NCBI GenBank assembly: GCA_046757165.1
Contig: JBHHXT010000053.1
Coordinates: forward strand, 1-26,405
Length of the DNA: 26,405 bases
Reading direction: 5' to 3'
Source of the DNA: a bacterium
Lineage (GTDB): Bacteria > Zhuqueibacterota > Zhuqueibacteria > Oceanimicrobiales > Oceanimicrobiaceae
The notes under the pieces are model-generated. The model searched no databases. It saw only the letters and a list, made by a program, of their open reading frames with translations, and was not told the origin of the DNA. Positions 6,774 through 12,339 of this stretch are shown here, piece by piece (the stretch's first letter is position 1; each line of letters opens with the position of its first letter). Made by a program: the position numbers and the translations under genes.

Positions 6774-7310
6774 ATGCCGATCAAAGTCGCCATCCTGACG
6801 ATTTCCACGCGCGGGAGCGAGGGCAAACGCAAACAAGACAAAAGCGGAGACACCATTAAAAACATCATCCGCAAAATCGACGGCCAGGTCGCCGATTACA
6901 AGGTCATCCGCGATGATCAGGAACAGATCATGTGGGAATTGAAACGGTTGGCTGAAGTGGTCAAAGTCGACCTCGTGCTCACGACCGGGGGCACCGGACT
7001 TTCCCCGACGGATGTCACGCCGGAGGCGACCCTGGCTGTCATCGAGCGGCGCGTGCCCGGGCTCGAGGAGGCGATGCGCATGAGCGGCTTCCGCAAAACG
7101 CCGCATGCGCTGCTTTCGCGCGCGGTCGCAGGCACTTTGGAGAGAACATTGATCATCAACTTACCCGGCACTCCCAAAGGGGTGCAGGAGAATCTGGAAA
7201 CGATTCTGGAGACGATTCCGCATGCGGTCGAAGTGCTGCGCGGCGGCTTCATTGCAGACAAACAACACCAGTACAACCAACCAAACCCGGAACAAGAAAA
7301 TAAGATCTAA
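6774..7310 (+). CDS. mog: Molybdopterin adenylyltransferase, MogA/MoaB family
   Basis: VAILTIS, DKSG, LTTGGTGLSPTDVTPEAT, LSRAVAG, IINLPGTPKGV; GAGG SD. Confidence 0.92.
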   Translation: MPIKVAILTISTRGSEGKRKQDKSGDTIKNIIRKIDGQVADYKVIRDDQEQIMWELKRLAEVVKVDLVLTTGGTGLSPTDVTPEATLAVIERRVPGLEEAMRMSGFRKTPHALLSRAVAGTLERTLIINLPGTPKGVQENLETILETIPHAVEVLRGGFIADKQHQYNQPNPEQENKI

Positions 7311-7431
7311 AGGCGGAGTTCGCCAGGTTTACGCAAAGAGCGCCAATATCTCCCTTTGAAGGGAGACAGGTTTTCGCTCGTCCGGAGCGAAAAGCAGAGG
7401 GGTGTCTGCTACACACAAGAACAAATTATTG

Positions 7432-7460
7432 TTGACTTTTAGAGTTTTTTGTTTTAGATT
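7432..7460 (+). promoter_or_regulatory. Sigma70-like promoter P1 upstream of riboswitch
   Basis: TTGACT (7432-7437), 17-bp spacer, TAGATT (7455-7460); predicted start ~7467, just before the aptamer. Confidence 0.7.
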
Positions 7461-7469
7461 TGATGCGTT

Positions 7470-7544
7470 GTTCCGTGTAATTCCTCGTAATAGGGTCGAG
7501 GGAGTCTCCACCAACAAACCGTAAATTTGTTGTTACCGCGGAAC
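7470..7544 (+). promoter_or_regulatory. Purine-family riboswitch aptamer, probable 2'-deoxyguanosine-II (2'-dG-II) class
   Basis: P1 GUUCCGUG/CGCGGAAC, J1/2 UAA, P2 UUCCUCG/CGAGGGA with loop UAAUAGGGU, J2/3 GUCUCCAC, P3 CAACAAA/UUUGUUG with loop CCGUAAA, J3/1 UUAC; U47, C51, C74 plus 2-nt J3/1 insertion. Confidence 0.88.
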
Positions 7545-7582
7545 CCAGGCTCGTAGACAAACCACCAGGGTGGAGACTCCAA

Positions 7583-7660
7583 ATGATAATAATGACCACT
7601 CCCCCGAAATGGGACTTTCCTTATCATTGGATGTTCTTATTCAGTCAATGTCAATCTTAA
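7583..7660 (+). CDS. Putative 25-aa leader ORF (MIIMTTPPKWDFPYHWMFLFSQCQS) under riboswitch control
   Basis: ATG 7583 with GGTGGAG SD (7569-7575) inside the anti-aptamer strand; TAA 7658-7660; no recognisable homology. Confidence 0.3.
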   Translation: MIIMTTPPKWDFPYHWMFLFSQCQS

Positions 7661-7736
7661 TCAATCACACAGCGGACCACCCACAAGTACGGTGGTGTAC
7701 CAAAATAGGTCTGATTGCCTTAACAACACTTTGTTC

Positions 7737-7765
7737 TTGACAATCTTGTCTCAGTTTAGTAGATT
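7737..7765 (+). promoter_or_regulatory. Sigma70-like promoter P2 upstream of TonB-dependent receptor
   Basis: TTGACA (7737-7742), 17-bp spacer, TAGATT (7760-7765). Confidence 0.6.
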
Positions 7766-7976
7766 CCGGTTGAGGAAAAAGAGGGGGGAAGGGACTCCTG
7801 CCTAGAATAATTCGTTCGCCAGACACCACAAGAAGACCTTTAGAATACGAAATCATAGTATTTGGTTGAATTCCCGTACCTATTAATAATGTAAGGAGGT
7901 GATTTAGAAAATCTGTTGAGCCATATTTTGTTGTTGATTACTGTATGAGGGTAGTGCAAAAAAAGGAGGACTATTC

Positions 7977-10900
7977 ATGTCTAAGAAATCACTGTTTGCG
8001 GTATCATTGTGCCTGTTGGTACCAGCACTTGTGTTTGCGCAAGGTAGAACCACAGCCTCGTTAAACGGCATGGTGACGACCAAGTCGGGTGAACCGCTTG
8101 TTGGCGCAAACGTTGTCGCGGTACACGAACCTTCGGGTTCGACTTTTGGCGCAGCCACACGCTCCGATGGGCGTTTTAACATCTCTGGTGTTCGTGTTGG
8201 CGGACCTTATACTGTCACCGCCAGTTTCATCGGTTATCGAACCGCCAAGCAAGAGAACGTCAACCTGGCTTTAGCCCAGGATTTGAGAATCACTTTCAGT
8301 ATGGTCGAAGAAGCGCTCGAGCTGTCTGAGATCGTCACGGTGGCAGAAAGAGATGCGATTCTCACGGCCTCGAATACGGGAACGGCGACCCATGTCACCA
8401 CGGCTCAGATCGAACGTCTGCCAACCATTACGCGCACTATATCCGATTTTACACGGCTTACCCCGCAAGTATCCGGATCGGGCGGCAGCGGTGCCACCAG
8501 TGTCGCAGGCAAGAATAATCGGATGAACAATTTTCAGGTGGACGGCGCCGTGCTCAACGATGCGTTTGGGCTCAATGCCGACGGTTTACCCACAGGAGCC
8601 GCCCGCGCCCAGCCTATCAGTCTCGACGCCATCGCCGAGTTCAACGTGGAAATCGCCCCGTTTGACGTCCGTTCCGGTAGCTTTGCTGGCGGCCTGATCA
8701 ACGCCATTACCCGCAGTGGGACCAATCACTTTGAAGGCTCCGGTTACTTCTTCGGCCAGAACGACTCCTTTGTCGGAGAGCTCGATGACAACGAATTTGG
8801 CAATTTCGATGACTTCCAGGGCGGTTTTCGGTTTGGCGGCCCCCTGGTCAAAGACAAAGTCTTTTTCTTTGTCAATGGAGAGGTTAGACGCCGAGATTTT
8901 CCCATCGAAGCCGGTCTTCTCGGTTCCGGAAAAGCAAATGAATTTCCGATCTCAGATGCTGAGATGCAACAGATCATTCAGATTGCCAATGACGTTTATG
9001 GCTATAATCCAGGCGGCTTCGCTCCGTTTACAAACGAAACCAACGACCAGAAAATCTTCGCAAGGCTGGATGTTAATCTCTCACAAAATCACCGGCTCAC
9101 CATCCGGCACAGTTTTGTGGACGCCGAGCGCGATGACGGTATCGACCGCAACGCCCGCGAATATACGCTCGAGAGTAATCAGTTCAAGCGAGATAACCAA
9201 ACGAACTCAACGGTTCTGCAACTAAACAGCACGATTGGCAACAACATGGCCAACGAATTCAGGCTCGCGTACACAACGATTCGCGACAAGAGAACACCGC
9301 TGTTTGCCGCCGCGCCGGAATTCGAGTTGAATCTGGAAAGAGCGGGGGATGGAATTGGTGAAATAAGGTTTGGGGTAGAGCGTTTTTCCCAGGCCAATGC
9401 CCTGGATCAAAACACATTTGAATTCACGAACAATTTGCACTATTTCACGGGCGACCATACCATCACGGTCGGTACCCATAACGAATTCATCTCTTTTGAC
9501 AACCTCTTTATCCAGGATGCGTTTGGCGCCTACGAATTTGACGTCGAATTGGATGATCTCGCCAGCGGCGCGGATGACTTCTCCCAGAACCGCCCGTCGC
9601 GTTTTTTTCTGAGTCAATCTCGCGTTCCGGGCGTTGATAAACCGCGTGCAGACTGGAGTTATATCCAACTGGGTTTCTACGCTCAGGATGAATGGAAAGC
9701 GTCGCCCGAGTTGAACCTGACCTTTGGGCTGCGAGCCGATATTCCATTGATGCCGGATGACCCGCTCGACAACTCTCAATTCACGTCTGAGTTTGGCCGC
9801 AAAACTTCGGATGTCCCCAGTGGCAATATTCTTTGGTCGCCGCGCTTTGGGTTCAATTACGATTTATCCGAAGACCGCACAACTCAAATTCGAGGTGGTG
9901 CCGGGATGTTTGCGGGCCTGCCACCGGCTGTCTGGCTGTCAAACCAGTATAGCAACACCGGCGTCGACTTTGCCCGTGTTTTTCTGTCCGGCTCTTCCAT
10001 TGAGGGTATCCAGGCCTCGGCTGATCCAAACAACCAACCCAACGTTACAGGCGACATCCCGACTTCCGATATCGCGCTGACGGACGAGGACTTCAAGATG
10101 CCGCAGGTTTTGCGCGCCAACCTGGCCATCGATCATCAACTTCCCAACGGCCTGGTGGGCACGCTGGAATTCCTGTACTCGAAGAATATCAACGACGTTT
10201 TCTTCAGAAACCTCAACATGGGCGATCCCAACAATCCGGGTGCACGAATTGGAACCACGCCAGATGGCCGTTCGGATTACGGCAGCTCGCGCTTGAGCAA
10301 TAACTTCAACAGCGTTATCTTACTGGATAACACCACTGAAGGCCGTCAATTCTTTGTTACAGCGCGTATCAAAAAGCAGCTCAATCGTGGCCCGCTCAGA
10401 GGTCTGTTCGGCAGCCTGGCTTACACATTCAGCGATGCTACCGACATCAATAGTGGCCGCTCGAGCCGTGCTATTTCAAACTGGCGCTTCAACGAGACAA
10501 GTGACCCCAATGGTGAAAAAGCCGAGACCTCCGATTTTGAAGTCAAGCACCGTCTCGTCGGGGATCTCTCCTATAATCTCCAATACGGGCGTGGCTTCGG
10601 CACGACCTTCTCAGTCTTCTATGAAGGACGCTCCGGAAATGGCTTTAGCTATATGTATGATGGCAATGTCAATGGTGATGTGTTTACCTTTGACAACGAT
10701 CTTGCTTTTGTACCGGCCAGCCGAAGCGACGTTTCATCGCAGGTTTCAGACGAAGAGTGGCAAGAAATTGAAACCTTTATCAATTCAAGCTCTGCTCTGA
10801 AAGACGCACGCGGCAAAATATTTCCACGTAACTCCGCACGTGCGCCATGGCAAAACCGAATGGACCTGCGTATTGCCCAGCAAATTCCGAGTGTCCGGGG

Positions 10901-11298: not shown

Positions 11299-12339
11299 AT
11301 GAAGACAAACAAGCGATGTGTCGTGGCATTCCTGCTTATGGTAGCGAGTTCCCTGCCTGCCAAAGACCTCGGCCTCATTCACTCCTACCTCATCCTGGGC
11401 GGCACGCAAGGCAACCAGATCGAACAGTTCAACGAACCCGATGCGGTCGCTTTCATGCGTGACGGCCGCTTGCTTGCGGGTGATACCGTCAACGGCCGGT
11501 TCAAGATGTACACCTTCTCCGAAACCACGCTCTCGATTGTCGCGGTGGGGAGTCCGGGCGGCGGCGATTGCCAGTTCGACAACAGTCTGGAGGTTGTGCT
11601 GGAGAGCGGCCGAGAAATCTACAACGAGGTTCAGGGGATCAGTTGCAATTCCAAAGACGAGATCTTTGTCGTCGACCAGGGCAATCGCAGGATTCTGGTG
11701 TTTGATGCCACGGGCACCTGCTTGCCCGAACGCACCATCGCACTCGAACCGATCCTGATCAAACCAGACCCGGAAAACGGCACAACCTACACCAGTATCC
11801 AAGGCCTGACCGTGGACGGCGAGGACAACCTTTACTTGACCGATACCGGCACGCGCACAGTTTACAAATTTCTCCCGGACGGCACCCTGGACCCCGAATT
11901 CGAGTTCCAGGCCAGACAGGGAACCGAATACATTCTCGACGATCCAGAATCCATGGTCATCCATCAGGACTGGCTGTACGTCGCCGATGAGGGACACCAT
12001 GTCATCAGAGTTTATGAGCGCAAATCTGGCAAGTTTACGGGCAAAACCATCGGCCATCCGGACTTGTTCGGCGCAGATGTCGAGGGTCTCGCCATTCACA
12101 ACTCCCATCTTTTCGCCTTGAACGAGGCCTCCGGCCAGGTGGTCATCTTTGACCTGAGAAAAAACGACCCATCTGTCGTGGCTCAATTTGGTCAAACAGG
12201 AGTGACCCCGGGACGATTTCTTTCGCCAGACGGCCTGGCCATCAGCCCGGACGGCAAATACCTGGCCGTCGCAGACCAGGGGAATTTCAGGATTCAGATT
12301 TTCCTGCTGGAAGAGATTGAGTCTAGATTGGGGCATTGA
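11299..12339 (+). CDS. Secreted NHL-repeat / six-bladed beta-propeller protein
   Basis: Signal peptide; repeats QFNEPDAVA, IFVVDQGNRRILVFD, LYLTDTG, LYVADEGHHVIRVY, FLSPDGLAISPDGKYLAVADQGNFRIQIF. Confidence 0.85.
   Translation: MKTNKRCVVAFLLMVASSLPAKDLGLIHSYLILGGTQGNQIEQFNEPDAVAFMRDGRLLAGDTVNGRFKMYTFSETTLSIVAVGSPGGGDCQFDNSLEVVLESGREIYNEVQGISCNSKDEIFVVDQGNRRILVFDATGTCLPERTIALEPILIKPDPENGTTYTSIQGLTVDGEDNLYLTDTGTRTVYKFLPDGTLDPEFEFQARQGTEYILDDPESMVIHQDWLYVADEGHHVIRVYERKSGKFTGKTIGHPDLFGADVEGLAIHNSHLFALNEASGQVVIFDLRKNDPSVVAQFGQTGVTPGRFLSPDGLAISPDGKYLAVADQGNFRIQIFLLEEIESRLGH

Follow-up and report, generated by a model that had tools for sequence, protein, structure and literature searches.

Organization of the Locus

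A 26,405-nt stretch of contig JBHHXT010000053.1, referred to below as the window, was analyzed around a riboswitch aptamer situated upstream of a gene for a TonB-type outer-membrane receptor. The gene order of this region is mog, aptamer, receptor, NHL beta-propeller protein and hybrid histidine kinase (Table 1). An earlier note, made from the letters of the window, had proposed a complete purine-type three-way-junction aptamer of the 2'-deoxyguanosine-II (2'-dG-II) class at this site. The covariance-model comparison, the predicted fold and the gene contexts of related aptamers bear out the aptamer itself and very probably its class, and they point to a substrate-induced switch whose connection with the receptor is weighed below.

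Table 1. Features of the window from the mog-like gene to the histidine kinase. Coordinates are those of the window; helices and promoters are named separately.
Feature	Coordinates	Strand	Basis or remark
mog-like gene	6774–7310		upstream of the aptamer
Promoter P1 of the riboswitch transcript, TTGACT-17-TAGATT	7432–7460	+	9/12 consensus matches, sigma-70-like
2'-dG-II-type aptamer	7470–7544	+	RF03165 match, minimum-energy fold, covariation
Aptamer helix P1	7470–7477/7537–7544	+	fold
Aptamer J1/2, UAA	7478–7480	+	direct reading; U22 = U7478
Aptamer helix P2	7481–7487/7497–7503	+	fold
Aptamer L2	7488–7496	+	fold
Aptamer J2/3, GUCUCCAC	7504–7511	+	C51 = C7509
Aptamer helix P3	7512–7518/7526–7532	+	fold
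Aptamer L3, CCGUAAA	7519–7525	+	fold
Aptamer J3/1, UUAC	7533–7536	+	C74-equivalent = C7536
Anti-aptamer segment, GGTGGAGACTCC	7569–7580	+	perfect 12-nt complement (100%) of 7501–7512
Candidate 25-codon leader open reading frame (ORF), MIIMTTPPKWDFPYHWMFLFSQCQS	7583–7660	+	translation; ATG 7 nt after GGAG
Promoter-like site P2, TTGACA-17-TAGATT	7737–7765	+	10/12 consensus matches, better than promoter P1
Conserved leader block, AAGGAGGTGAT	7893–7903	+	~80 nt upstream of the receptor start; not followed by a conserved ORF
TonB-type outer-membrane receptor, 1060 aa	7977–11159	+	GGAGG at 7965–7969
NHL beta-propeller protein, six-bladed, 346 aa, signal peptide	11299–12339	+	NHL 7.8e-15, Phytase-like 8.7e-08
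Hybrid histidine kinase	after the NHL gene	opposite

Aptamer Structure and Class Assignment

The Rfam model of the 2'-dG-II class (2dG-II, RF03165) matched exactly positions 7470–7544 of the plus strand, covering model positions 1–71 of 71 (cmscan). The match scored 61.4 bits against a gathering score of 60, with E-values of 1.5e-13 for the window and 8.4e-15 for the entire 6.09-Mb genome; no other copy in the genome is significant. The Purine model (RF00167) gave 46.5 bits at 7453–7558, over its own cut-off of 37, and the aptamer thus scores 14.9 bits higher on 2dG-II. The 2dG-I model (RF01510) had no match at the aptamer site at E <= 10; its sole match in the genome lies elsewhere (contig C301, 17.6 bits).

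When the 75 nt were folded alone in RNAfold, the three-way junction was the minimum-energy fold (-22.2 kcal/mol, z -2.4), and 2 of 200 shuffles were as stable. The fold has helices of 8 bp (P1), 7 bp (P2) and 7 bp (P3), the architecture that the earlier note had described, and its loops L2 (UAAUAGGGU) and L3 (CCGUAAA) are complementary. L2 carries three inserted bases relative to the 2dG-II model, and the alignment shows this longer loop in all five genomic copies of the lineage. Covariation was assessed over 61 distinct related aptamers in an alignment fitted to the model, hence biased towards the structure; there, 19 of the 22 pairs change on both sides, and paired cells amount to 91.1% compared with 73.5% in shuffles.

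The hallmarks described for 2'-dG-II riboswitches are U22, C51 and C74, a two-base insertion in J3/1 starting with an invariant U, and a G-C junction-proximal pair of helix P1 (Matyjasik & Batey 2019, PMC6847200). All of them are present in the window. The first-shell bases correspond to U7478, C7509 and C7536; UUAC contains a two-base UU insertion, the first base being the class-invariant U; and the junction-proximal pair is G7477-C7537, not A-U. The assignment to the 2'-dG-II class therefore holds, and we consider the aptamer, on the strength of its sequence features, very probably a true member. The two cytosines and the UUAC junction had been read identically in the earlier note. Its shorthand for the class, U47/C51/C74, differs from the U22, C51, C74 of PMC6847200, and the window has U at both 22 and 47, with C at 48.

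The closest comparison is 2'-dG-II/env1 (PMC6847200), which shares the three-way junction, U22, C50, C51 and A52, a J3/1 insertion beginning with U and followed by A and C, the G-C pair closing helix P1 and a 7-bp P3; env1 differs in having C47 next to C48, where the window aptamer has U47. With the guanine/adenine riboswitches of RF00167 the aptamer has the fold and the loop–loop scheme in common, but its position 51 is C where they have U, its J3/1 has four bases and theirs two, and the pair closing P1 is G-C in place of A-U. Compared with its own class, it stands out by the longer L2, by its own promoter, by a 432-nt leader to the next long gene that holds a second promoter-like site, and by a TonB-type receptor rather than a secreted nuclease as next gene. 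It also lies in an assembled genome, whereas in 2017 all reported members of the class came from metagenomic reads (PMC5473149).

Expression Platform

The transcription start that the earlier note had placed about 3 nt before the aptamer is plausible, considering the position of promoter P1. Its TTGACT -35 box, 17-nt spacer and TAnnnT -10 box recur before seven of seven clade aptamers (window, L009–L012, L121 and L153).

The region complementary to GGTGGAGACTCC, positions 7501–7512, comprises the 3' end of helix P2, J2/3 and the first base of P3, and a Shine-Dalgarno-like GGAG at 7572–7575 lies inside the anti-aptamer segment. The duplex energy is -25.1 kcal/mol, and in a shuffle test restricted to duplexes of the J2/3 region none of 500 shuffles was as stable. 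Folding of 7470–7590 gave the structure with the anti-aptamer helix as the minimum (-31.3 kcal/mol), the aptamer-enforced fold (-27.9) being 3.4 kcal/mol higher, a gap that ligand binding could cover. The layout resembles a translational ON switch acting on the candidate leader ORF.

Other class members were inspected for comparable arrangements. In metagenome contig L135, GGAGGTGGAT directly precedes the ATG of a 338-aa ORF and pairs with the J2/3–P3 sequence ATCCACCTCC, and most GC-rich members possess a terminator with its 5' arm overlapping the 3' strand of helix P1. The hidden ribosome site of L135 and the terminators competing with P1 both imply ON logic.

An OFF switch, by which the ligand would lower receptor expression as feedback repression of uptake, is improbable. 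It would accord with the riboswitches known before TonB receptors, which are OFF switches, but the ligand-free fold hides the GGAG, the aptamer fold frees it, and the other class members argue for the opposite sign. In the cobalamin riboswitch before btuB, an OFF switch, the ligand derives from the cargo. The window resembles this system in that a TonB-dependent receptor gene carries a riboswitch in its leader, and would differ from it by ON logic and by a ligand that is a breakdown product of the cargo.

Sister Aptamers and Their Gene Contexts

RF03165 was detected in 4 of 61 relative genomes, all from the family of the window (3 of 20 besides the window itself, 0 of 40 outside the family). 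A phylum-wide sample gave the same picture, with matches in 4 of 151 genomes and in the own family only (3 of 17 besides the window; 0 of 133 in 24 other families). The further copies, two in genome G004 and one each in G014 and G010, scored 50.3–57.8 bits, all under the Rfam cut-off. Mean column identity of the five genomic copies, window included, is 90%. The sister aptamers (these four together with L121 and L153) share promoter, L2 and P3 with the window aptamer, and differ from it in that three have U51 (the second G004 copy, G014 and L121) and most lead an operon for a 713-aa protein and a lamin-tail domain (LTD) protein of the type IX secretion system (T9SS).

This operon was found behind the aptamer in G014, G010, the first copy of G004 and L153. 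It begins with the ~713-aa protein, which has a weak T9SS tail, and further encodes a ~945-aa protein with an LTD domain, a sub-threshold ExeM/NucH match and a T9SS sorting domain, as well as a ~480-aa protein. In G010 and G004 the operon adds a ~955-aa TonB receptor with a Plug domain; in G010 this TonB-dependent receptor is the fourth gene.

The most informative arrangement is that of G004. One strand carries mog, panB, panE, panC, panD, aptamer 1, genes for proteins of 715, 945 and 509 aa, a 954-aa receptor, a PorV-like protein and a 378-aa NHL protein, and next comes, on the opposite strand, a nuclease of the exo-endo-phosphatase family with a T9SS tail. Behind it lie aptamer 2, a 1064-aa ortholog of the window receptor, a 352-aa NHL ortholog and, in the opposite orientation, a hybrid kinase. 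A same-strand aptamer–receptor–NHL unit accordingly occurs in two genera, that of the window (genome G000) and that of G004; in the latter it lies ~7 kb from the other aptamer copy and is physically joined to nuclease-type genes. In G011 and G001 this site holds mog, panBECD and NHL and lacks a receptor. The gene orders of the window, G004, G011 and G001 indicate that aptamer-led units occupy one variable site.

Ligand Specificity

Position 51, the J3/1 sequence and the scores on both models were compared among the five genomic copies (Table 2).

Table 2. Junction features and model scores of the genomic copies.
Copy	Position 51	J3/1	2dG-II (bits)	Purine (bits)
Window	C	UUAC	61.4	46.5
G004a	C	UCAC	57.8	40.7
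G010	C	UCAC	50.3	45.9
G004b (before the orthologous receptor)	U	CCAC	54.6	55.3
G014	U	UCAC	53.5	56.2

Aptamers combining U51 with a J3/1 insertion are located at G004:C30:192225-192299 (L010), G014:C94:14317-14391 (L011), L121:2598-2672 and L108:5166-5236, and the two that were scored on both models, G004b and G014, have about equal values. Such copies may be natural intermediates between guanine and 2'-dG specificity. Among 71 metagenomic aptamers, recovered with a pattern allowing either base, U51 occurs in two, L121 and L108. The C51U change costs env1 18-fold in 2'-dG affinity, and the selectivity of class members for 2'-dG over guanosine ranges from 2.6- to 180-fold (PMC6847200). Taking the U51 copies, the cost of C51U in env1 and this selectivity range together, the most fitting description of the signal is a guanine deoxynucleoside or nucleoside derived from the breakdown of nucleic acids.

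Strict 2'-dG specificity of the window copy is likely, judging from its junction bases. Since G004b has U51, CC in J3/1 and equal Purine and 2dG-II scores, the ligand may not be strictly 2'-dG in the lineage. A different or broader purine signal, such as guanosine, guanine or several guanine compounds, is an unlikely alternative. In its favor, U51 occurs in two of the five genomic copies, which lead operons of the same types and have a slight advantage on Purine over 2dG-II, and the published selectivity values leave room for it. The window copy itself speaks against it, with C51, U75, A77, C78, the G-C pair and its lead on the 2dG-II model.

Metagenomic Class Members

In 2017, the class comprised 12 examples, all metagenomic (McCown et al., PMC5473149); PMC12342879 names 'phosphate transport' in connection with its gene contexts. 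A model built from the five genomic copies was applied to 79 metagenome loci obtained from one degenerate pattern scan, which yielded 71 further aptamers in 70 loci. Eight of these are exact duplicates including the flank, and 61 distinct sequences entered the covariation count. No model match at E <= 1 was obtained for the remaining nine loci, which we counted as chance hits of the pattern; scanning metagenome contigs with a clade-specific pattern gave no match. With 71 model-confirmed aptamers from a single scan as against 12 in 2017, the class is much larger in today's data, so the 'few known members' of the earlier note applied to 2017 and applies no longer.

Protein families were searched for at 43 metagenome loci with a first downstream ORF, 85 of the 123 candidate ORFs being submitted, with near-duplicates and small ORFs left out. 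Thirteen of the 43 loci start with a nuclease-type or LTD protein, namely Endonuclease I (4 loci), LTD/PKD/T9SS (3), Barnase-type RNase (2), Metallo-beta-lactamase (2), PLD (1) and Exo-endo-phosphatase (1). A secreted nuclease directly downstream is typical of the class and not part of its definition; the window lacks this context.

The commonest first gene after GC-rich metagenomic 2dG-II aptamers, seen in about 17 loci, encodes a protein of ~295 aa to which no Pfam family could be assigned even at E 0.5 (e.g., L165:6097-6993, L123:6128-7006 and L149:1666-2616). It is often followed by genes for FtsX-like proteins and M23 and S41 peptidases, and we regard its product as a candidate new secreted nuclease.

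Receptor and Neighboring Genes

The reading of the first long gene after the aptamer as a TonB-dependent receptor, given in the earlier note, is supported. Its product combines CarboxypepD_reg (1.9e-20) with an outer-membrane barrel (OMP_b-brl_4, 7.2e-58). A SusC/RagA N-terminal match remained below the cut-off, and a Pfam search found no Plug family in the receptor at E <= 0.001; residues 1–292 are 28% identical to the N-terminus of the G010 receptor, whose Plug match spans residues 132–226. The closest relatives of the receptor (65–78% identity) come from metagenome-assembled genomes labelled Calditrichaceae or candidate division KSB1. Window positions 7300–8300 were found in four sequencing runs, all of DNA and from one hydrothermal-vent study.

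More distant relatives, at 35–41% identity, occur in Ignavibacteriales, Parabacteroides and Balneolaceae, and the next gene encodes a type I phosphodiesterase/nucleotide pyrophosphatase in 4 of 14 tested. In these four (L027, L028, L035 and L039, including Parabacteroides goldsteinii), PF01663 lies directly after the receptor relative with E-values of 1e-80 to 1e-92.

The NHL protein is a possible operon partner of the receptor. An ortholog of the NHL protein stands behind the receptor in G004 and G005, and behind panD in G011 and G001, where the receptor is absent. Proteins resembling it in the Atlas are generic NHL/lactonase propellers.

LTD domains are represented in the own genome by 18 matches in about nine large ORFs, none near the switch. 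The same genome has at least 136 ORFs with a T9SS C-terminal sorting domain like that of the G004 proteins. These counts point to a very large secreted and surface proteome in G000.

A sub-threshold match to whalefall-1 RNA was noted at 7346–7406 on the plus strand (28.4 bits, cut-off 37), between mog and the riboswitch promoter. The genome contains 22 whalefall-1 matches at E <= 1, with 16 over the cut-off (contigs C105, C210, C370, C54, C473 and others), and several lie at contig ends, as expected of a multi-copy repeat that breaks the assembly.

Receptor Leader

Seven orthologous receptor leaders were compared (window, L010 and L014–L018). A purine-rich stretch follows the P2-type promoter site in all seven. 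The block AAGGAGGTGAT is found in the window, L010, L016, L017 and L018, and L014 has the variant AAAGGAGGTGAA; it was not seen in L015, so six of the seven leaders carry the block. We take blocks of this type to be complementary to the 3' end of 16S rRNA, and they may represent a standby ribosome site or another leader element. On the plus strand, 7250–8050 contains no terminator-like site, hence none between aptamer and receptor.

In G010, a strong promoter-like site (TTGACA-17-TAAATT, L012:1052-1080) lies ~17 nt after the aptamer, and the succession of aptamer and second promoter may be a recurrent arrangement in this lineage. Derivation of the window leader from the 713-aa gene of the sister operons, as its remnant, was considered and rejected, as tblastn gave only insignificant minus-strand matches.

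Proposed Model and Alternatives

We propose that a functional riboswitch of the 2'-dG-II class is transcribed from its own sigma-70-type promoter (7432–7460) in a bacterium that is probably KSB1/Calditrichota-like and from a hydrothermal vent. Without ligand, 7501–7512 would pair with 7569–7580, which would break the aptamer and hide the GGAG. On binding of 2'-deoxyguanosine or a close guanine nucleoside, the aptamer would close and release 7569–7580; the freed GGAG would permit translation of the leader ORF (7583–7660), and the transcript would continue. As no intrinsic terminator stands in the way, it could pass the receptor's own promoter and reach the receptor gene, perhaps also the NHL gene. 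In this way the switch would act as a substrate-induced ON input added to a receptor with a basal promoter; the cargo of the receptor would be products of extracellular DNA breakdown. To this whole chain, from aptamer and ON switch to read-through and receptor cargo, we assign a probability of about 0.55.

Control of the receptor by the switch is plausible in view of position, strand, the absence of a terminator and the G004 island. The link between switch and receptor drawn in the earlier note is partly supported, by the aptamer–receptor unit of G004, and it is weakened because the receptor has its own conserved promoter and the platform faces a small ORF. The same note had suggested deoxynucleosides or DNA fragments as cargo. 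This receives indirect support from the nuclease-type island of G004, from the nuclease contexts in metagenomes and from the phosphodiesterase neighbors of receptor relatives.

A number of observations weigh against the chain. All seven orthologous receptor leaders have a P2-type site, TTGAC(A/T/C)-17-TAnnnT, equally far from the start codon, and five of them have no aptamer; the expectation that orthologous receptors would be preceded by the aptamer was borne out in the window and G004 only. Since P2 is kept in all seven leaders and the aptamer in two, the receptor gene has a promoter of its own, to which some genomes add the riboswitch module, at most as an additional input to receptor expression. 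Our five-sequence model found no aptamer in 80 of 80 receptor-relative loci at E <= 1, and the 19 of these loci scanned with Rfam at the gathering threshold contained no purine-type RNA. The receptor start codon lies 432 nt from the aptamer, conservation between the window and G004 does not extend to the spacer that separates the aptamer from the second promoter, and none of the 85 ORFs scanned after metagenomic 2dG-II aptamers belongs to a TonB-receptor family.

Other points concern the expression platform and the class assignment. The platform addresses a small ORF ~400 nt before the receptor start, the peptide of this ORF is not conserved in relatives, and a start codon within ~10 nt is expected by chance roughly half the time (own estimate). 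The anti-aptamer was significant in only two of the six clade members evaluated, the window and L009 (L153 was outside the evaluation). L010 and L011 gave 74 and 103 of 500 shuffles as good, respectively, and by the same duplex test L012 and L121 had no anti-aptamer. The 2dG-II match exceeds the Rfam cut-off by a small margin of 1.4 bits, owing to the three extra bases of L2 relative to the model, and the copy before the orthologous receptor, G004b, has U51 and lacks the invariant U of the J3/1 insertion. Finally, Endonuclease I is absent from the own genome, and the 945-aa LTD operon protein has no ortholog there beyond the secretion tail.

One alternative is a self-contained riboswitch that controls only a short transcript or the 25-codon ORF, or that serves as a small regulatory RNA, the receptor being expressed solely from P2. 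The presence of P2 in every orthologous leader, with or without aptamer, the location of anti-aptamer and GGAG directly before the small ORF and the unconserved spacer would all be explained. We consider it unlikely nonetheless, as there is no terminator-like site before the receptor, the small ORF is not conserved, the order and strand of aptamer and receptor are kept in two genera, and other aptamers of the clade clearly lead long operons.

A decaying relic without function in this genome is the least probable explanation, with very little weight in our judgment. The single genomic copy barely over the Rfam cut-off and the lack in the own genome of the nuclease-type operon led by the aptamer in relatives are what one might expect of a relic. 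Its junction hallmarks, the 8-bp helix P1, the promoter and the perfect 12-nt anti-aptamer are all intact, however, and the window copy is the highest-scoring of the five in the family.

A further extension of the proposed ON switch is tentative and, in our view, rather doubtful. The promoter–aptamer cassette might mark a variable 'DNA-scavenging island' at a single chromosomal site of this family, between mog/panBECD and NHL, in which the Oar-like receptor would be a 2'-dG-induced, TonB-dependent importer of DNA breakdown products, controlled through the leader-ORF switch by a transcript that passes its basal promoter.

Relation to Known Systems and Significance

TonB-dependent DNA import has been described for DdbC-DdbD of Bacteroides thetaiotaomicron and for the Riemerella transformation system (Sharan et al. 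2025, PMC12478041). The logic of the G004 island is that of the ddbABCDEF DNA-utilization locus, for which the accessible text of that paper mentions no riboswitch. Neither a DUF5689 partner nor a nuclease family was found among the 17 window ORFs scanned.

The literature search returned no paper containing both 'dG-II' and 'TonB'; the 2017 class description lay outside this search, and an earlier mention of a receptor there is possible. Among the matches listed, there was no report of dG-II in KSB1, Calditrichota, Balneolaceae or Ignavibacteria, and a search combining deoxyguanosine riboswitch, extracellular DNA and nuclease gave nothing related. The class is already described; its gene context here, with a TonB-type receptor, an own promoter and a long leader with a second promoter, is new.

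Together, a near-complete genome and its relatives make the host lineage, promoter, expression platform and regulon of a 2'-dG-II riboswitch readable. The regulon ties a sensor of DNA breakdown to a TonB-type receptor and, in relatives, to secreted nuclease-type proteins, which fits TonB-dependent DNA import in Bacteroidales (PMC12478041) and provides a concrete, testable guess for the substrate of an orphan receptor family. The near-identical natural aptamers with C51 and U51 offer a ready test of nucleoside versus nucleobase specificity. If the doubtful extension to a DNA-scavenging island is true, the window would hold the first case of a nucleoside-sensing riboswitch linked with TonB-dependent uptake, and an orphan receptor subfamily would gain a substrate class.

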